Assembly (NCBI GenBank): GCA_028696165.1
Contig: JAQVHQ010000011.1
Location: 1,866 to 65,865 of the forward strand
From: Lachnospiraceae bacterium
GTDB taxonomy: Bacteria; Bacillota; Clostridia; Lachnospirales; Lachnospiraceae
Length of the DNA: 64,000 nucleotides
Direction: 5' to 3'
A program made the position numbers and the translations under genes. The notes beneath the pieces are model-generated. The model was given only the letters and a program-made list of their open reading frames with translations, did no database searches and was not told the DNA's origin. Position 1 is the first letter of the stretch. Each line of letters opens with the position of its first letter. Shown here piece after piece: positions 8,950 through 54,893 of this stretch.

Positions 8950-10278
8950 CTAAATCTCTCCCGGTCTATTCCTCAGATGTTCCAGACGTTCTTTTATCAC
9001 CTTCTCATATCCATTCTCAGAAGGTTCATAGAATACAGCATCTGCAATTTCATCCGGCAGATACTGCTGTTTCACATAATGTTCCGGATAACTGTGGGCA
9101 TACTGGTACCCAATACCATGTCCAAGCTTCGCAGACCCCTTATAATGGGAATCCTGCAGATGAACCGGTACACTGGTCTTCTTCGTTCTTACCGACTCCA
9201 TAGCCGCAAATACAGCCTCACAGGCAGCATTGCTCTTAGGTGCAGATGCCACATAAGACACAGCCTGCGACAAAATAATCTGAGCCTCCGGCATACCGAT
9301 ACGCTCCACAGCCTGAGAAGCCGCCACAGCCACCTGCAGCGCCTGAGGATCCGCATTCCCCACATCTTCCGAAGCGCAAATCATAATACGGCGCGCGATA
9401 AACTTAATATCTTCACCCGCATACAACATCTTCGCCAGATAATACACCGCCGCATCCGGATCGGTCCCCCGCATACTCTTAATAAACGCTGAAATCGTAT
9501 CATAATGCTGATCCCCGGTCTTATCATAACGTACAACCCTCTTCTGAATACACTCCGAAGCAGTGGCCAAATCAATCCGAATCTTCCCATCAGCCCCCGG
9601 CTTCGTAGACAAAACCCCCAGCTCAATCGCGTTCAAAGCCGCTCTCGCATCCCCACCGGCAACATCCGCCAAAAACTCCCTGGCATCCGGTTCCAAGACA
9701 GCCCCATAGGCCCCCAGCCCTCTCTCTTTATCCGTCACCGCACGGTCAAGCAGAGTCATAATCGCATCTTTATCCAAAGACTTCAACTCAAAGATAATAG
9801 ACCTGGAAATCAAAGCCCCATTCACCTCAAAATAAGGATTCTCCGTAGTAGCTCCAATCAAAATCAAAGTTCCATCCTCCACAAAAGGAAGCAGATAATC
9901 CTGCTGTCCCTTGTTAAAACGATGAATCTCATCAATAAACAAAATCGTCTTCTTCCCATACATCCCCAGCGAATCCTGAGCCTCTTTAACCACAGCCTCC
10001 ATATCCTTCTTCCCAGCCACCGTAGCATTCAGCTGCGTAAAATTAGCACTGGTAGTATTTGCAATCACCTTAGCCAAAGTAGTCTTCCCCGTCCCCGGAG
10101 GTCCATAAAAAATAATAGAACTAAGCTTATCCGTAGTAATTGCACGATACAGCAGCTTATCCTTCCCAATAATATGCTCCTGCCCCACAACCTCTTCCAA
10201 AGTCCTTGGTCTAATCCTTGAAGCCAAAGGAGATTCATTCTCCAACTTCGTCTCTTTCATATAATCAAACAAATCCAT
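8950..10278 (-). CDS. rarA: replication-associated recombination protein A (AAA+ ATPase)
   Basis: Walker A GPPGTGKTT, FIDEIHRFNK, MgsA C-terminal similarity; start set to MDLFDYM (10278) which has a GGGAGAA RBS. Confidence 0.9.
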   Translation of the reverse strand: MDLFDYMKETKLENESPLASRIRPRTLEEVVGQEHIIGKDKLLYRAITTDKLSSIIFYGPPGTGKTTLAKVIANTTSANFTQLNATVAGKKDMEAVVKEAQDSLGMYGKKTILFIDEIHRFNKGQQDYLLPFVEDGTLILIGATTENPYFEVNGALISRSIIFELKSLDKDAIMTLLDRAVTDKERGLGAYGAVLEPDAREFLADVAGGDARAALNAIELGVLSTKPGADGKIRIDLATASECIQKRVVRYDKTGDQHYDTISAFIKSMRGTDPDAAVYYLAKMLYAGEDIKFIARRIMICASEDVGNADPQALQVAVAASQAVERIGMPEAQIILSQAVSYVASAPKSNAACEAVFAAMESVRTKKTSVPVHLQDSHYKGSAKLGHGIGYQYAHSYPEHYVKQQYLPDEIADAVFYEPSENGYEKVIKERLEHLRNRPGEI

Positions 10279-10426
10279 AATTTCTCCCTTACCAAAACTA
10301 CAATATAACAATAAAATCATATGTAACCATTCTCATGATAAGCTCATACATAATATAAACTTTCATCCAACTTCCACTCTATCTTACAACGAAACAAACG
10401 TTCGCACAAGCATTTTCTAATATTAA

Positions 10427-10795
10427 CCCCCATACTCCCTCAATCCCCGTGCCATTAAAATGGCACGCGCCCTCACTGCCACCCACAATCCAAGCCCCTA
10501 ACCCCCATGCTCCCTCAACCCCCGTGCCATCAAAATGGCACGCGCCCTCACTGCCACCCACAATCCAAGCCCCTAACCTCCATACTCCCTCAACCCCGTG
10601 CCAAAATGGCACGTGCCCTCACTGCCACCCACAATCCAAGCCTCTAACCCCCATACTCCCTCAACCCCCGTGCCATCAAAATGGCACGCGCCCTCACTGC
10701 CACCCACAATCCAAGCCCCTAACCCCCATACCACCTCAACCCCCGTGCCATCAAAATGGCACGTGCCCTCACTGCCACCCACACAACCTCCCTCA
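10427..10795. repeat. 75-bp tandem repeat, 4 full plus 1 partial unit, C-rich on + strand, each with an internal 8-bp hairpin
   Basis: units at 10427, 10502, 10577 (71 bp), 10648, 10723; unit CCCCCATACTCCCTCAACCCCCGTGCCATCAAAATGGCACGCGCCCTCACTGCCACCCACAATCCAAGCCCCTAA. Confidence 0.95.
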
Positions 10796-10828
10796 ACCAC
10801 CACAACCCCGCCTCCAGCCCGAACCCAG

Positions 10829-11107
10829 CCAGCCAGAAAGCCTTACTAAGTAGCAAAACAGGCGGTGTTTATGGATATCAGAATCAGCTGATGAGTATCT
10901 TAGTGCGAAGGCACCCAAGTTTATGGGACGAAATGGTGCTTACAAAGCACCATTTCGAAGGCATCCTGAGGCAGGTATGCATCAGCATACCTGCCGAATA
11001 TGCCTGATTCCCATAAACTTGGGTGCCTTCACACTTAGATACTCACAGCGCAATGACCTATCCATAAACACCGCCTGCTTTGCTACTTAGTAAGGCTTTC
11101 TGGCTGG
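10829..11107. ncRNA. unclassified ornate structured element, family copy 1 of 3 (strand unresolved)
   Basis: 49-bp outer helix with one mismatch, GCTG/CAGC mini-helix, 35-bp second helix, two inner hairpins, invariant GTATGCATCAGCATAC at 10975-10990; same architecture at 21170 and 52907. Confidence 0.55.
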
Positions 11108-11122
11108 CGTCCCTCCCCCCAT

Positions 11123-11794
11123 TCACCGAAACACCATCTCCTCCACCGTAACAAACTCATACCCCCCTTCCCACAAATCCCTCACAATACGCACTGCCGC
11201 CTCCACCGAAGTCTCAAAAGAATCATGCATCAAAATAATATCCCCACCCTCCACCTGTCTCTCCACCCGTTCCACAATCGCCTCCGTATTCTGAAGCTGC
11301 CAATCCATAGAATCCACACTCCAAAAAACAGGCACCATACACACCGTATACTCCAAATCCTCCTTCCACTCCCCATAAGGCGGCCGCACAAAGCAAGGAT
11401 ACTGCCCCGTAATCTCAAAAATCTGATTACCCGTCCGTTCAATCAATTCTACAGCCTTTTCATCGCCCACCGCTTTCATAGAAACATGCTCATAAGTATG
11501 ATTGCCAATCAAATGTCCGTCCGCCTTCATTTGACGAATCACCTCTTCGTGTCCGGTAATATTTTGCCCAAGCAAAAAGAAGCTGGCTTTTACGCCAAGC
11601 TTCTTAAGTTCTGTTAACAATTCACTTGTATAAACACTGGGACCATCATCAAAAGTAAGAGCAACCTGCATATTCTCTCTCGTAACGGTCATTCCATCTG
11701 TCTGTTCCGTCTTCTGTCCGTAATATCCCGACATATAACATATAAATCCAACTAAAAAAGCCAAAAAGGTTTTATACAAAACGCTCCTCTTCAC
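11123..11794 (-). CDS. polysaccharide deacetylase family protein (NodB domain)
   Basis: 223-aa ORF, N-terminal TM, VALTFDDGP, GNHTYEH, LMHD motifs. Confidence 0.85.
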   Translation of the reverse strand: MKRSVLYKTFLAFLVGFICYMSGYYGQKTEQTDGMTVTRENMQVALTFDDGPSVYTSELLTELKKLGVKASFFLLGQNITGHEEVIRQMKADGHLIGNHTYEHVSMKAVGDEKAVELIERTGNQIFEITGQYPCFVRPPYGEWKEDLEYTVCMVPVFWSVDSMDWQLQNTEAIVERVERQVEGGDIILMHDSFETSVEAAVRIVRDLWEGGYEFVTVEEMVFR

Positions 11795-11815
11795 ACAAAT
11801 ACTCTTTTGTTTTCT

Positions 11816-12487
11816 CTATTCATCTATATGCGGTTCCAATGGATGATAGAATTTCTGCATCTGTTTTTCCAGATTATACAGACGTTTCGAATATCTTTTC
11901 ATCTCATCCGAACGAAGCGCTTCTTCCTCCCCATCAAGCGGCTTATAGCAAAGCTGATGTTCCATGCTCGCCCACCAGTCCATACCTATTGTACGAATCT
12001 GAATCTCCACCGGAAGATAGGTTGCTTCCTCTTGTGTTGGGATTTTAGAACCTATTACCATGTGATAACTGCGATATCCATTTCCTTTGGGGTTCTTCAC
12101 ATAGTCCTTCTCTTTTAACACAATCACATTTTTTAATTTCTTAATATCTTCTACGATTGCATATATCTCTTCTATATAAAAGCAGATAACACGAACTCCA
12201 GCCAAATCACCAATTCGATTAACCGCATTAATGCAGGTTGGCTCTAAGTTCTTTCTTTGCATTTTATCCGCAATACTTGCATAGCTCTTAACACGAGCCT
12301 CTATACTATGTATCGGACTTCTGCCGTTTCGTTCTTTGTAATTTCCATCCAGCTGGCGCAGACGATTCTCCATCGATTTGCACACCCGCTCATATGGTTC
12401 TATCAGATTGTCATAGCTTTCTTTGGAAAAATTACTTTTTCGATATTCCTCCGGGATATTCAATCTGCATTTCTTCATTATCTTCAT
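11816..12487 (-). CDS. small alarmone synthetase (RelA/SpoT-domain GTP pyrophosphokinase, RelQ/RelP type)
   Basis: 223-aa ORF; DLAGVRVICFY, GYRSYHMVI, VEIQIRTIGMDWWASMEHQLCYK. Confidence 0.85.
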   Translation of the reverse strand: MKIMKKCRLNIPEEYRKSNFSKESYDNLIEPYERVCKSMENRLRQLDGNYKERNGRSPIHSIEARVKSYASIADKMQRKNLEPTCINAVNRIGDLAGVRVICFYIEEIYAIVEDIKKLKNVIVLKEKDYVKNPKGNGYRSYHMVIGSKIPTQEEATYLPVEIQIRTIGMDWWASMEHQLCYKPLDGEEEALRSDEMKRYSKRLYNLEKQMQKFYHPLEPHIDE

Positions 12488-12768
12488 ATTAATTGATTAC
12501 CTTCTTTGTTTCCCTTTCTTTCCTTATCCCATTTTCTATTTTCATGGAATCCTATCCTGCCAGTAAATTCAAGTACGCATTGGCATACGTATATTATAAT
12601 AGCAGTCTTTTGTAAATCCCCCATTACATTATTGTTAAATCCATGAAAAATCCCCTGAAACATCAAGTCTCAGGGGTCTCTTACGTAGTATATGAAAGTG
12701 CATCTGCACTCTCTCACAAAATCCGTTTAACAAATCCTGTGTATACAATATATCAATACAGTTAAAAA

Positions 12769-13125
12769 TTAAGCTATTTTGCTTTTAGCTAATTCTGCAA
12801 GTGTTGCGAATCCTTCTGCATCATTTACAGCCATTTCAGCTAACATTTTTCTGTTCATGTCGACATCAGCTAATTTTAATCCATACATAAATTTGCTGTA
12901 TGATAATCCGTTGATACGAGCTGCTGCATTAATACGAGCAATCCATAACTGTCTGAACTGACGTTTTTTCTGTTTTCTTCCAGCATATGCGCTTGTTAAA
13001 GCTCTCATAACTGACTGTTTTGCTACTCTATACTGTTTTGATCTGGCACCTCTGTAACCTTTAGCCAGTTTTAATGTTCTGTTATGTCTTTTTTTAGCGT
13101 TTAATCCGCCTTTAATTCTTGCCAT
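12769..13125 (-). CDS. rplT: 50S ribosomal protein L20
   Basis: 118-aa [32 protein letters not shown]. Confidence 0.97.
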
Positions 13126-20760: not shown

Positions 20761-20937
20761 TTCAATATTCACCTATCAAACAGCCAACTTCCTTATATGT
20801 ACATGCAAGAACAATCTTTTTTCATAGCAATAGCTATACAAACCTTCCAATTCCCACATTCACCCACAAACTCAGCTTTTAACCATCCTACATCCACAGG
20901 CCCCGTGCCCACGGCACGCGATTTTCCACCACAACCT

Positions 20938-21140
20938 AATCCCCTCGCACAACACAAATCCCCCTCTCAACACAATCCTCTTCACAACACAAATCCCCCT
21001 TCACACCGCAATCCCCTTCACACCGCAATCCCCTTCACACCGCAATCCCCTTCACACCGCAATCCCCTTCACACCGCAATCCCCTTCACAACACAATCCC
21101 CTTCACACCGCAATCCCCTTCACAACATATATCCCTCCCC
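20938..21140. repeat. 18-bp C-rich tandem repeat, about 10 units (CACACCGCAATCCCCTTC)
   Basis: five perfect units 21002-21091 flanked by degenerate ones; GGGG every 18 nt on the minus strand. Confidence 0.9.
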
Positions 21141-21169
21141 ACCACCACAGCCAACACCGTCCATCCCAT

Positions 21170-21460
21170 CCGTAAGACTTTACAGCCGGCCAAAAGGATG
21201 GGGAAACTGCTGCTTTTCCCGGTCATAAAATGCGCTGATGAACTTCTTAGGGCGAAAGAGCCGACTACACAGGAATGAAAGGTGTTTACCAAAACACCTT
21301 TCAAAGGCACCCTGAAGGTTGTATGCATCAGCATACAGCCTGAATGTGCCTGGCTTCCTGCGTAGTCGGCTCTTTCACCCTTAGAAGTTCACAGCAAATG
21401 TTCCTGACCGGAAAAAGCAGCAGCTTCCCCATCCTTTTGGCCGGCTGTAAAGTCTTACGG
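21170..21460. ncRNA. unclassified ornate structured element, family copy 2 of 3
   Basis: 35+21-bp outer helix, GCTG/CAGC, 35-bp P2 with T.T and C.A mismatches, hairpin loop TTACCAAA, invariant GTATGCATCAGCATAC at 21321-21336. Confidence 0.55.
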
Positions 21461-21490
21461 ATGAACACACCCCACCTAACCTTCAACCCA

Positions 21491-22042
21491 CTACTTTCTC
21501 AAATAAGCCTCGCGCCCCTCTTCATAAAGATTCCTACCCTCGCAGTCAATAATAACCACCAAAGGCATATCCTCCACATAAAGCTTCCGCAAAGCCTCCG
21601 CACCCAAATCCTCATAAGCAATCAACTCACACTTCTTAATGCACTTTGCCAACAAAGCTCCCGCTCCGCCAATTGCACCAAAATAAACACCACTATACTT
21701 CTTCATGGCATCCACCACTTCCGGCAATCTTGCTCCTTTTCCAATCATTCCTCGGGCACCAACAGACATCATCGTCGGTGCATAAGCATCCATACGCCCG
21801 CTGGTAGTAGGTCCAGCTGATCCAATCACCTGACCCGGTTTTGCAGGTGTCGGTCCCACATAATAAATCGTAGCATCCGCAGGATCAAAAGGAAGCTTCT
21901 CCCCTCTCTCCAATGCCTCACACATCCTCTTGTGCCCTGCATCTCGAGAAGTATAAATAGTCCCTGTCAGATAAACACTATCCCCTGCATGCAGTGTCTT
22001 TGCCAACTCTTCCGTCAATGGAAGCTGTATATGTCTCTCCAT
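21491..22042 (-). CDS. class-I (Fe-S) fumarate hydratase / L(+)-tartrate dehydratase family, beta subunit
   Basis: 183-aa ORF, GTIYTSRDAGHKR, GPTTSGRMD, GKG motifs of FumA C-terminal domain proteins. Confidence 0.85.
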   Translation of the reverse strand: MERHIQLPLTEELAKTLHAGDSVYLTGTIYTSRDAGHKRMCEALERGEKLPFDPADATIYYVGPTPAKPGQVIGSAGPTTSGRMDAYAPTMMSVGARGMIGKGARLPEVVDAMKKYSGVYFGAIGGAGALLAKCIKKCELIAYEDLGAEALRKLYVEDMPLVVIIDCEGRNLYEEGREAYLRK

Positions 22043-51561: not shown

Positions 51562-52446
51562 TTACTTACCTAAGCAAAGCATCGCTGGATCGATTCCGTA
51601 TTTAACTGCAATCTCTTCAAATTCTCCGCTTTCTACCATCTTCATCAGTTCTGCCTGAACAGCATCTTTTAAAGCCTCATCACCTTTACGGAATCCGATA
51701 CCATACTGTTCTGTATAGAATGGCTCGTCAAGGATTACATATGCGCCTTCTTCTCTCTGTTCCAGCTGATACTGTGCAACACCGATATCAATAGCAACAG
51801 CATCTGCAGCACCTGATTCCATGTTCATAAATGCTGTATTGTAATCCGGGTTCTCAGTTAAAGAAGCGAAACTTGCTGTCAAATCAGCACAATCTTCTCC
51901 ATTTAAAGCTTCCAAAGCTGCTGAAGCTGCCTGAACTACTACATTCTTACCTGCTAAATCTTCCAGAGAAGTAATTCCGGAATCAGCAGCAACCACCATA
52001 ACCTGAGTATTATCTACATATGGATCAGACCATGTATACATATCCTCACGATCCGGAGTAATCGAAAATCCATTCCAGATACAATCTATAGTTCCAGATT
52101 CTAATTCCATATCTTTAGAATCCCAGTTAATAGGTTTCTTTTCTAATGTCCATCCCAATGCATCACAAACTGCCTGAGCACAATCTAAATCAAAACCAAC
52201 ATACTCTCCTGAATCATCCATATAACCATATGGTGGATATTCTGCATCAAAACCAACAATAAAAGTATCACGCTCAGCAGATGTATCTTCAGCTGCCGCT
52301 TCTTCTGTTGCTTCCTCTGACTCTCCTTCTGAAACCGGTGCTGTCTCTGAAGTGGTTGTCTTTGCACTATCACTGCTTCCACATCCCATAACCATGACTG
52401 AAACCATCGTTGCTGATAATAATATACTAATCACTTTTTTCTTCAT
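51562..52446 (-). CDS. amino acid ABC transporter substrate-binding lipoprotein
   Basis: AAGGAG RBS then MKKKVISILLSATMVSVMVMGCGSS lipobox; SBP family-3 body (FIVGFDAEYPPYGY). The 503-aa ORF in the track is read-through of the upstream non-coding DNA. Confidence 0.88.
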   Translation of the reverse strand: MKKKVISILLSATMVSVMVMGCGSSDSAKTTTSETAPVSEGESEEATEEAAAEDTSAERDTFIVGFDAEYPPYGYMDDSGEYVGFDLDCAQAVCDALGWTLEKKPINWDSKDMELESGTIDCIWNGFSITPDREDMYTWSDPYVDNTQVMVVAADSGITSLEDLAGKNVVVQAASAALEALNGEDCADLTASFASLTENPDYNTAFMNMESGAADAVAIDIGVAQYQLEQREEGAYVILDEPFYTEQYGIGFRKGDEALKDAVQAELMKMVESGEFEEIAVKYGIDPAMLCLGK

Positions 52447-52520
52447 AATCCTACTCCTTTTCTTCCTGGTAATCTTTAATACAAAAATAGACTTTGTGTT
52501 TATCACAATGTCACTCTGCC

Positions 52521-52550
52521 ATTCTATCACACTAAAGTCGAAAGTGTCAA
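52521..52550 (-). promoter_or_regulatory. sigma-A type promoter of the amino-acid ABC operon
   Basis: minus sense TTGACA (52545-52550), 18-nt spacer, TAGAAT (52521-52526). Confidence 0.55.
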
Positions 52551-52605
52551 TGAGAGACGGACATTTCGGGAAAAATGTTAGAAGCGGGGGGGATGGCAGG
52601 GGGAC

Positions 52606-52752
52606 GCAGGAGAAGAGACGGGGGCGGGGCAGAAAACGCGTCGTCCTCCTCAGCTGCCGAAACCCCGGGCATGCGGCTCCCGCCTTTGCCCGGCGGCGAT
52701 CTTCGGACTCCTTTGGCTTGACTTTCTGCCCCGCCCCCGTCTCTTCTCCTGC
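52606..52752. repeat. GC-rich 30-bp perfect inverted repeat with 87-nt GC-rich spacer
   Basis: GCAGGAGAAGAGACGGGGGCGGGGCAGAAA (52606-52635) / TTTCTGCCCCGCCCCCGTCTCTTCTCCTGC (52723-52752); spacer holds the nested hairpin CCGGGC...GCCCGG. Confidence 0.9.
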
Positions 52753-52906
52753 TGTTTGTTGGCGATAACTGGGAAAGGCGAGATAACATTTGTTCCCTGG
52801 TGGGGATGCCCTTTGGGTGGTTGCGGGCGTGACTGTGTGGATTGTCTGTTTTTTATATTCGTGATATGTTGTGTTGATAAATATATGCGTACTTAACAAT
52901 AAGCAG

Positions 52907-53193
52907 CCGTAGCACGAAGAACACCCATCTGACTGCGGAAAAGTCGAGTTTTTATGGATATGGGATGAGCTGATATACATCTTGATGCGAAAGAACCGGT
53001 TACAGCCGGGCGACGGGTATTTACCAAAATACCCGTCGAGGACGCTCTGAGGCGTGTATGCATCAGCATACACACCGAATGCGGCCGCTCCCGGCTGTAA
53101 CCGGTTCTTTCACATCTAGATGTATACAGCAAAATCCCCCTATCCATAAAAACCGACTTTCCCGCAGTCAGATGGGTGTTCTTCGTGTTACGG
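52907..53193. ncRNA. unclassified ornate structured element, family copy 3 of 3
   Basis: about 57-bp outer helix, GCTG/CAGC, 36-bp P2 with T.T and C.A mismatches, hairpin loop TTACCAAA, invariant GTATGCATCAGCATAC at 53056-53071. Confidence 0.55.
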
Positions 53194-53198
53194 CGTCC

Positions 53199-54893
53199 TC
53201 ACTCCACCTTCTCCAATCGCCCCACAACAATCTTCCTAAGCATCTCCACCTTCTCTTCAGCCTCTGCTGCATTCTTCCCCCTGGTATAAATATAAATCTT
53301 AATCTTTGGTTCCGTTCCCGAAGGTCTGACTGCAAACCAGCTTCCATCTTCTAATAGAAACTTCAGTACATTTGAAGGCCCTATATCTTCATATCCGTTA
53401 ATATAATCAATTTCCTTTGCCACCTTAATCCCATCATATTCCATTAATGGATTCTCGCGATAGGAAATCATCATACGTTCAATTCTCTTAGCCCCCTCTA
53501 TTCCATCATAAATCAGTGAAATCTGAGCTTCTTTGTAGTATCCATATTGCCTGTAAATATCTTCCAGCACATCTAACAAACTTTTCCCCATCTTTTTATA
53601 ATATGCCGCAGCTTCACACACCAGCATAGAAGTACTTACTCCATCTTTATCTCTCACAGCTTCACTGGGAGCATAACCGATACTCTCTTCATAGCCAAAT
53701 AAATAACGATATCCTTCCTGTTCCATAACCGGAATTTTTCCACAGATATTTTTAAATCCTGTCAGGGACTCATACATCTTTACTCCATGCTGTTTTGCTA
53801 TTTCTTTTCCCAAATCTCCCGTTACGATAGATTTTACCATTGCTCCATTATCAGGAAGACTTCCCTTGGTCAAAAGTCCTTCTAATATATAGTTAATCAG
53901 CAGTACCCCTGCCTGATTTCCATTAATCGGAACATAGTCTCCCTGCTTATTTCTTACTTCCATAGCAAAACGATCGCTGTCTGGATCGGTTGCAATAAGA
54001 ATATCTGCCGATTTTTCCCCGCCTAATTTTTCAGCATATTTGAATGCTTTTGTATCTTCAGGATTCGGATATCCTACCGTAGGAAAGTCTCCGTCCGGGT
54101 GCTCTTGTTCAGGAACCACAGATACATTAGCAAAGCCTCTTCTTTTTAATATCTTTTGCACAGGTATACTTCCAGCTCCATTTAATGGTGTATAGACAAT
54201 AGACACTGTCTTATCAAGATCTTCTTCTCTTGCCATAGCCAGTCCTTCCACCATTTTCAAATAAGCTTCATCCATTTCTTCGCCTAAGTACTCCAACAGA
54301 TTTTTCTCTGCTGCGCTGTCCAATGATATGCTTTTGATATCCTCAAACATATCGACCTGTGTGATTTCTTCTGTCATCCCATCTGCGATATACTCGGCAA
54401 CCTGTGCGCCGTCTTCCCAATAGACTTTGTACCCGTTATATTCTTTGGGATTATGGCTTGCCGTAATATTAATTCCCGCTGATGCACCTGTTTTTCTTAT
54501 GGCAAATGATAGTTCCGGTGTTGGTCTAAGGGATGGAAACAGGTAGACTTTTATGTTATTTCCAGCAAGAATCTGTGCGGCATACTCTGCAAATTCCCGG
54601 GAATGATGGCGGCTGTCGTATGCTATTACTACGCCTTTATGCATACAGTCTTCGCCCTGCTTTTTCATATAGTCAGCAATGCCCTGGGTAGCTTTTCCAA
54701 CGGTATACCTGTTCATCCGGTTAATTCCAGCTCCCATTTTTCCTCTAAGGCCAGCCGTGCCAAAGGATAAGGGTTTATAGAATCTCTCTTTAATCTCCTG
54801 CTCATCCTGCTTGATGGCAAGTAATTCTTTCTTTGTATCAGCATCCAAATTCTTGTTGTTCAGCCATTCTTCATATATCTTTACTGCATCCAT
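53199..54893 (-). CDS. phosphoglucomutase / phosphomannomutase family protein
   Basis: 564-aa ORF; active-site TASHNPKEYNGYK, metal loop ATDPDSDR, GYEESIG. Confidence 0.92.
   Translation of the reverse strand: MDAVKIYEEWLNNKNLDADTKKELLAIKQDEQEIKERFYKPLSFGTAGLRGKMGAGINRMNRYTVGKATQGIADYMKKQGEDCMHKGVVIAYDSRHHSREFAEYAAQILAGNNIKVYLFPSLRPTPELSFAIRKTGASAGINITASHNPKEYNGYKVYWEDGAQVAEYIADGMTEEITQVDMFEDIKSISLDSAAEKNLLEYLGEEMDEAYLKMVEGLAMAREEDLDKTVSIVYTPLNGAGSIPVQKILKRRGFANVSVVPEQEHPDGDFPTVGYPNPEDTKAFKYAEKLGGEKSADILIATDPDSDRFAMEVRNKQGDYVPINGNQAGVLLINYILEGLLTKGSLPDNGAMVKSIVTGDLGKEIAKQHGVKMYESLTGFKNICGKIPVMEQEGYRYLFGYEESIGYAPSEAVRDKDGVSTSMLVCEAAAYYKKMGKSLLDVLEDIYRQYGYYKEAQISLIYDGIEGAKRIERMMISYRENPLMEYDGIKVAKEIDYINGYEDIGPSNVLKFLLEDGSWFAVRPSGTEPKIKIYIYTRGKNAAEAEEKVEMLRKIVVGRLEKVE

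Follow-up and report, generated by a model that had tools for sequence, protein, structure and literature searches.

The 64,000-nt stretch of DNA described here, hereafter the window, belongs to the metagenome-assembled genome (MAG) of a Lachnospiraceae bacterium (GenBank assembly GCA_028696165.1, contig JAQVHQ010000011.1, positions 1,866 to 65,865 of the forward strand). Between the start of rarA and the stop codon of a polysaccharide deacetylase-family gene it carries a tandem array of five C-rich units of about 75 nt, followed by a C-rich spacer and a giant hairpin, element copy 1 of the window (Table 1); this agrees with the position between that element and rarA given in an earlier note on the same DNA. 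The start of rarA is most likely the ATG at 10278, since a Shine-Dalgarno-like AAGGGAGAAAT precedes it; the longest open reading frame (ORF) starts at 10320. The junction motif that closes the spacer is found in most copies of the element, where it ends ...CCAACACCCA and the hairpin then starts with GCC. No intrinsic terminator was predicted on either strand of the array's intergenic region, the sole terminator-like match of the scanned stretch lying inside the rarA coding sequence.

Table 1. Features around the array and at the second copy of the giant hairpin (window coordinates)
Feature	Position	Strand	Remarks
rarA (AAA+ recombination factor)	8950-10278	-	start 145 nt beyond the array
Five-unit tail-module tandem array	10424-10795	+ (C-rich strand)	Tandem Repeats Finder, unit composition
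Unit 1	10424-10498		75 nt
Small hairpin of unit 1	10448-10467	+	CGTGCCAT-TAAA-ATGGCACG
Unit 2	10499-10573		75 nt
Small hairpin of unit 2	10523-10542	+	CGTGCCAT-CAAA-ATGGCACG
Unit 3	10574-10644		71 nt, short
Small hairpin of unit 3	10597-10613	+	CGTGCCA-AAA-TGGCACG, 7-bp stem, 3-nt loop
Unit 4	10645-10719		75 nt; exactly 38 C and 8 G
Small hairpin of unit 4	10669-10688	+	CGTGCCAT-CAAA-ATGGCACG
Unit 5	10720-10794		75 nt; degenerates past ~10783
Small hairpin of unit 5	10744-10763	+	CGTGCCAT-CAAA-ATGGCACG
C-rich spacer	10796-10827	+	ends in junction motif ...CCGCCTCCAGCCCGAACCCA right before the giant hairpin
Giant hairpin, element copy 1	10828-11108	+	50-nt outer arms, 37-nt inner arms, conserved core
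G-rich leader (gene sense)	11109-11125	-	ATGGGGGGAGGGAC, preceded by the TGA stop of the deacetylase gene (11123-11125)
Polysaccharide deacetylase-family gene	11123-11794	-	stop codon abuts the giant hairpin
RelA_SpoT-domain gene	11816-12487		
Single-copy tail module at giant hairpin copy 2	20861-20935	+	profile match 20861-20909
17-bp C-rich microsatellite	20938-21135	+	in the module-to-hairpin spacer of copy 2
Giant hairpin copy 2	21167-21463	+	repeat finder

Tandem Repeats Finder reports the array at 10424-10783, with a period of 75, 4.9 copies, 92% matches and a score of 629; a repeat finder puts the start-to-start spacings at 75, 71, 75 and 75 nt. The unit lengths of 75, 75, 71, 75 and 75 nt, the last unit diverging, bear out the earlier description of a 75-bp tandem repeat with one 71-bp unit; the four bases missing from the short unit are three from the top of its hairpin and one from the C run ahead of it. 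The plus strand has 33-38 C per unit against 7-9 G (the earlier count, 38 and 8, is exact for unit 4), and the array as a whole is 49% C and 11% G, a C/G ratio of about 4.4, so that this strand is indeed, as had been claimed, C-rich, G-poor and rut-like in composition. The 8-bp hairpin with a CAAA loop that had been quoted for every unit occurs exactly in three of the five, while the other two have close variants, the CGTGCC...GGCACG hairpin being present in all five. When the plus strand of a unit is folded as RNA, the small hairpin is all that forms and the remainder is left unpaired (z = -4.0 against shuffles). A proline-rich ORF of 134 aa (10449-10853, plus strand) runs open across the array because C-rich DNA is without stop codons. 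The array nevertheless appears to be non-coding, because several of the periods seen across the genome are not divisible by 3, the loops differ in length, and a Pfam search with the three ORFs that cross the array gave no match. Rfam, searched at gathering thresholds and at permissive E-values, holds no family for the repeat; only sub-threshold matches to microRNA precursors were obtained, on the giant hairpin, and these are generic long-hairpin artefacts.

The genome (3.77 Mb in 112 contigs, 39.7% GC, assembled from short reads) was searched with iterated nhmmer profiles built from the copies in the window. The core of the giant hairpin was found at 62 loci, 48 of them full length, and the tail module, as the unit of the array is called here, in 78 units at 42 loci, of which 29 hold a single unit (as profile matches) and 13 a tandem array. 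The motif beside copy 2, which had been thought related to the array, is a real, homologous module (its small hairpin, at 20903-20918, reads CCGTGCC-CAC-GGCACG), and what had been a likeness between two loci extends to 42. At every locus that allows the test, the module has a giant hairpin of 270-420 nt at a distance of 20-270 nt. Thirty-five module loci are within 1.5 kb of a core, and in 34 of them the module is upstream of the core, in the same orientation and 70-320 nt away; the sole exception (C67:12981-13263) has its core flipped relative to the flanks. Seven module loci have no such core nearby. At six of them the giant hairpin that comes next has another core or lacks one, and the seventh is where contig C94 ends. 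The module is thus consistently associated with giant hairpins, and at least three types of core are represented among them. The hairpins, for their part, can exist without it, as copy 3 of the window does; 11 of the 48 full-length ones carry neither the module nor a 53-bp satellite that occurs in 211 units at 25 loci, nine of them in hairpin tails.

The six non-standard loci (C44:10261-10830, C57:81158-81860, C71:37000-37544, C108:5050-5500, C59:6500-6873 and C28:8902-9240) all share the flank motifs ACCCA/GC...GC/GTCC; the hairpins that follow the module there include those with a type 2 core (...CTTAG..GGTGAAATCC...TACTAAGACTTAGGTGCGAGG...), one with a shortened core and one with no core. 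At C67:12981-13263 the giant hairpin has fully complementary 102-nt arms, with the asymmetric core inverted relative to the flanks and the module; the hairpin centre looks flipped, resembling the flip/flop forms of other hairpin DNAs.

On the C-rich strand the consensus of the module is CCACCCACAAAyyCAGCyyCTAACCTCCc-N8-CCACAAGCC-CCGTGCC-loop-GGCACGC-GCCyTCACTGCCAcc. It is followed by a variable C/T-rich spacer ending ...CCGCCAACACCCA directly ahead of the giant hairpin, whose arms start with GCC and end with GGC, and then by GTCCcCC. Read in the sense of the adjoining gene, the order is a stop codon (mostly TAG), a short G-rich leader ending in GGAC, the giant hairpin, the junction motif TGGGTGTTGGCGG, a G-rich and almost C-free spacer, one to seven modules, sometimes the 53-bp satellite, and the next gene. 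This one composite unites, as parts of its tail, the array, the motif beside copy 2, the C-rich spacers and some of the 53-bp satellite; its architecture, fixed orientation and placement at gene ends are evident from the census. The array at 10424-10795 is accordingly best regarded, with a probability that we put at about 80%, as the tail module (~75 nt) of a non-coding, species-specific composite repeat, amplified five-fold at this locus.

At 39 of the 48 full-length hairpins the gene on the hairpin side converges with the C-rich strand, its stop codon facing the hairpin, which makes the C-rich strand antisense to its flanking genes. The distance from stop to giant hairpin is 4-33 nt in 25 copies; 17 of these 25 stops are TAG, against 27% genome-wide (binomial p ~2e-5), and the element may include the stop codon or target it. 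(The stops next to the hairpins of the window are TGA at 11123-11125, TAG at 21491-21493 and TGA at 53199-53201.) Of the 48 copies, 39 have the G-rich strand in gene sense and 42 have it as the leading-strand sequence; in the two clear conflicts between gene and replication direction, the orientation of the element follows the gene. A terminator census scored just 13% of ordinary gene ends, so that ends with the composite and other ends are not comparable in this respect.

The pattern of its variants shows the small hairpin to be under structural constraint. Thirty-six distinct versions were found, with a nearly invariant 6-bp foot, CGTGCC/GGCACG; where the foot does vary, it changes on both sides (CGCGCC/GGCGCG, CGTGCTTT/AAAGCACG, CGTGCTGC/GCAGCACG), and positions 3, 5 and 6 show double substitutions that preserve pairing. 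At positions 7-8 all four pair types occur. Because the loop ranges from 2 to 10 nt, the hairpin would act as a folded single strand, of DNA or RNA, rather than as a site bound in duplex form; an internal T.G pair at one locus favours the C-rich strand as the one that folds.

The 13 arrays hold 2.2-6.9 copies with periods of 74, 75, 87, 92, 113, 114 and 145 nt, and each has a hairpin loop of its own. Since units are 95.7% identical (median) inside an array and 81.4% between loci, each array represents an independent local amplification. The spacers between module and hairpin often hold short tandem repeats of their own, such as the 17-bp array at copy 2. Together, the independent arrays and the spacer microsatellites mark the tail side of the giant hairpin as a hotspot of tandem duplication. 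The short C-rich direct repeats of the tail may give rise to the arrays through slipped-strand mispairing or unequal recombination, a process probably helped by stalling of the polymerase at the adjacent giant hairpin. On most copies the G-rich strand serves as template for the lagging strand, whose synthesis would there reach the folded hairpin from the tail side, and repeats would be expected on that side only. A hairpin flanked by direct repeats is the type of template used in in vitro slippage assays (PMC4134008). The number of copies is in itself probably close to neutral; a role of the tail in the cell, if it has one, would most likely be as part of a gene-end boundary jointly with the giant hairpin.

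Several points weigh against this account of the array. Bracketing direct repeats of at least 8 nt were found at only 7 of 26 single-module loci, so that the substrate of slippage would mostly be low-complexity C-rich sequence and not a defined repeat. The pairwise divergence of modules is uncorrelated with that of the adjacent cores (Mantel r ~0), and the joint propagation of tail and hairpin is thus deduced from architecture, not from phylogeny. Comparison between strains, made by exact-protein look-up, reached near-identical assemblies only: GCA_028692155.1 has one mismatch in 8278 nt and an identical array, and a Logan contig breaks inside the array. Array copy numbers may also be underestimates, because several contigs of the short-read MAG end inside arrays. 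Lastly, the strand bias is extreme even in spacers that are unrelated to one another, which could mean selection for a function.

This bias is a property of the whole family. In the C-rich orientation the modules are 50% C and 8.5% G and the non-homologous spacers 50% C and 4.6% G (C/G about 11), compared with 20% C and 14% G for ordinary intergenic DNA in the same orientation. It reflects either selection or inheritance from C-rich seed motifs spread by slippage.

The module was found nowhere outside this species in the searches made. BLAST with the array against 60 relatives, including one MAG of the same genus, gave no match; array and hairpin alike matched nothing in these relatives or in plasmids and phages. 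Nor does the array have sequence words in common with any other stretch of DNA in the survey to which the window belongs. An exact-pattern scan of 185,579 species genomes returned 89 single matches, in high-GC genomes and close to the number estimated by chance, none of which fits the module profile; in JGI metagenomes a stricter pattern gave five chance matches. The hairpin core was not found in 400 genomes of the same family, in a search that scored two candidates per genome and had low sensitivity. In the same-genus genome (4300-4480 of stretch L126, on contig C192, compared with window positions 10279-13125) rarA directly follows rplT after an intrinsic terminator; the composite is missing from that place, as are the genes for the RelA_SpoT-domain protein and the deacetylase, and the locus is not collinear. 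The contig that carries the neighbour of copy 2 in that genome stops 25 nt past the stop codon.

Among other explanations, the one given most weight takes each module for a miniature element with the same flanks as the full one and a hairpin of ~20 nt in place of the giant one. The array would then be a row of mini-elements, and the newest element, the giant one, would have small or older ones lined up behind it as its tail. This is a tentative idea which we consider rather doubtful. In gene sense a unit reads TAG + ~29 nt G-rich + GGGC, hairpin, GGGGTTGAGG, in parallel with the stop TAG + 4-30 nt G-rich + GGAC, giant hairpin, TGGGTGTTGG of the full element, and the right-flank profiles are alike (GTCCcCCCtCC... 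and CGCCcTCACTGCC...; column-shuffle p ~0.04, with two cross-controls lower). The resemblance of the left flanks is not significant, however (p = 0.34). Moreover, the foot CGTGCC is conserved between loci and the arms of the giant hairpins are not, which argues that the small hairpins are not independent collapses of giant ones.

The main rival on the functional side, unlikely in our estimation although much in the composition would suit it, is that of an antisense boundary, in which the C-rich tail would load Rho, the giant hairpin would pause the polymerase, and antisense RNA would be terminated before it reached the upstream gene. In its favour count the general properties of rut sites, which are unstructured, rich in C and poor in G, and the main role of Rho in Bacillus subtilis, the suppression of antisense transcription. 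A full-length rho gene is present (TIGR00767, 578 bits against a curated cut-off of 509), the units are unstructured except for one 8-bp hairpin each, the bias reaches from the array into the non-homologous spacers, no intrinsic terminator is predicted on either strand of the intergenic region, and the tail always comes ahead of the giant hairpin in the direction of the C-rich strand. Any role of Rho would concern antisense transcripts and not mRNAs, because the plus strand is antisense to the adjacent gene in 39 of 48 cases; more modules would make a longer rut, and the G-rich, nearly C-free sense RNA would be ignored by Rho. The bias may, however, be mere inheritance from C-rich seed motifs through slippage. 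The sole promoter-like site, 10289-10317 (TTACCA-17-TAAAAT, plus strand), points from the rarA side into the array and would be the start of the antisense transcript that the Rho model needs; such sites are no more numerous than expected by chance. Taken further, hairpin and C-rich tail would make up a portable, strand-asymmetric transcription boundary on a stop-codon-homing repeat, with antisense RNA stopped via Rho; this is less likely still. If it were true, local amplification of the module would tune the strength of the boundary, and if the strand bias were selected, the element would be a mobile transcription boundary. To our knowledge, no mobile modular Rho-dependent insulator has been described in bacteria.

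The earlier note had also proposed G-quadruplex (G4) potential for the minus strand, which holds up weakly: the G tracts are there, but the canonical motif (G3+N1-7 x4) is predicted only once in the array, at 10495-10523, that is in one of five units, and at 5 of the 42 module loci. The potential would thus be a by-product of G-richness and not a conserved feature. That a G4 or R-loop on the G-rich strand, as sense RNA or as lagging-strand template DNA, pauses transcription or replication past the gene is improbable. It would be in keeping with the orientation of that strand relative to genes and replication and with the finding that 9 of the 21 canonical motifs in the genome fall in tails, which make up less than 1% of it. 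The G4Hunter score of the minus strand of the array reaches 2.04, and its mean, 1.13, is under the usual thresholds of 1.2-1.5; the canonical motif is freely destroyed by point differences between units; and conservation in the module falls on the Watson-Crick hairpin instead of the G tracts.

Similarly hard to credit is a REP-like substrate of a Y1 (HUH) transposase, in which the small hairpin would be recognised by a RAYT/IS200-type enzyme and the composite moved as single-stranded DNA. The genome does encode a single RAYT-like protein of 252 aa, which scores 67 bits with REP_Tyr_transpos and shows HUH and Tyr motifs, as well as three TnpA genes of the IS200 type that are identical to one another, and a hairpin with a conserved foot and variable top, oriented with the replication strand in 42 of 48 copies, would fit. 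The RAYT match is, however, below the NCBIfam cut-off of 80, GTAG is near just 5 of 70 small hairpins, and the RAYT-like gene is flanked by another palindrome, GCAGGCGAAAACCGTTTTCGCCTGC, rather than by the module. Nor is there a sign of recent movement, the closest pair of hairpin copies seen in a BLAST search being only ~91% identical, which counts against such a substrate. The RAYT-like gene itself lies on contig C96, at 1111-1869 of stretch L107 on the minus strand (the region L107 1040-1960 corresponds to C96 ~52440-53360), with GCAGGCGAAAACCGTTTTCGCCTGC-type palindromes on both sides. These palindromes are a second, separate REP-like family in the genome, and their 20-bp unit forms a 10.9-copy array at C67:40529-40745.

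The array is very improbable as a duplex-DNA binding array of the iteron or centromere type, or as a coding repeat: the regular unit spacing with a palindrome in each and the open 134-aa ORF would suit them, but the spacing of the palindrome half-sites varies by 8 nt between loci, the units of 74-145 nt are often not multiples of 3, and the ORF has no Pfam match and is antisense to all neighbouring genes.

Among known systems the composite comes close to the BOX elements of Streptococcus pneumoniae, which have the structure boxA - boxB(n) - boxC and for whose variable boxB number slippage and unequal crossover are among the mechanisms cited (PMC3049150). Both are composite, non-coding, dispersed intergenic repeats of a Firmicute with extensive hairpin structure, and in both one module, which folds alone and independently of the remainder, varies in tandem copy number (here 1-6.9 copies per locus, with 13 arrays). 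In BOX, however, boxB lies between two pairing ends, whereas the module here lies outside the hairpin and always on one side; BOX elements are ~100-300 nt long with conserved ends, in contrast to a 270-420-nt hairpin with diverging arms; and they have neither the extreme C/G strand bias nor the anchoring at stop codons seen here. The sequence of the composite was unmatched outside its species in the searches made.

With REP, BIME and REPIN repeats and their RAYT genes (PMC3116915, PMC3337134) the composite shares the nature of a high-copy extragenic palindrome at gene ends, the mosaic of palindromic units and other conserved motifs (BIME), long hairpins that are kept paired (REPIN), and the single-copy RAYT-like gene in the genome. 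The differences are several. The GT(A/G)G tag of REP has no regular counterpart, since of 70 small hairpins 5 have GTAG or CTAC no more than 12 nt from the foot; the repeats on either side of the RAYT-like gene are of the GCAGGCGAAAACCGTTTTCGCCTGC type, neither module nor giant hairpin; the hairpin has 3-4 times the length of a REPIN; and nothing in these families corresponds to the strand-asymmetric tail and its tandem amplification. The composite thus appears to work like a BOX- or BIME-type repeat, yet would belong to neither family, and what is unusual in it is the one-sided, strand-asymmetric and amplification-prone tail.

Other comparisons are less close. A C-rich, G-poor and largely unstructured tract of at least 75 nt with a strong hairpin within about 45-270 nt further on, in a genome with rho, is what a Rho-dependent terminator has, its rut tract being expected to run to some 70-80 nt or more, but here it is antisense to the flanking genes and repeated within a dispersed element. 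The head-to-tail 75-nt units, 92% identical and intergenic, are those of a minisatellite or variable-number tandem repeat, except that the unit is not locus-specific and is instead a copy of a module present at 42 loci. A miniature inverted-repeat transposable element was rejected: there are no conserved terminal inverted repeats, the arms differ between copies, and the flanks ...ACCCA / GTCC... are not direct repeats, a test that covered the flanks of the hairpin, the outer end of the tail being undefined. A type III toxin-antitoxin system with ToxI-like repeats was rejected as well, the neighbours being rarA and the polysaccharide deacetylase gene and not a ToxN/AbiQ-type toxin. Chi-like and KOPS-like G-rich motifs found no support either, as the skew of the genome is strong enough to bias every G-rich word by more than 90% to the leading strand, and GCGCGTG is rare outside the elements. 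The GC skew of the genome is unusually strong, at ~0.2 in 15-kb neighbourhoods.

What looked like a unique repeat is one instance of a species-wide composite with strict architecture. At its gene ends this bacterium appears to have large repeat composites in place of classical terminators, a point that matters for how its transcripts are ended. Tandem repeats seem to arise readily on one side of a long palindrome, which provides a natural experiment on hairpin-induced slippage. The repeats also break short-read assemblies and could serve as strain markers. Tandem repeats with a period of at least 14 nt make up ~42 kb of the genome, and contigs C7, C8, C11, C20, C94 and C110 start or end inside such repeats, so that the assembly is fragmented. 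Upstream of giant hairpin copy 3, which has no tail module, the window carries a GC-rich island with a 30-bp perfect inverted repeat (52606-52752).

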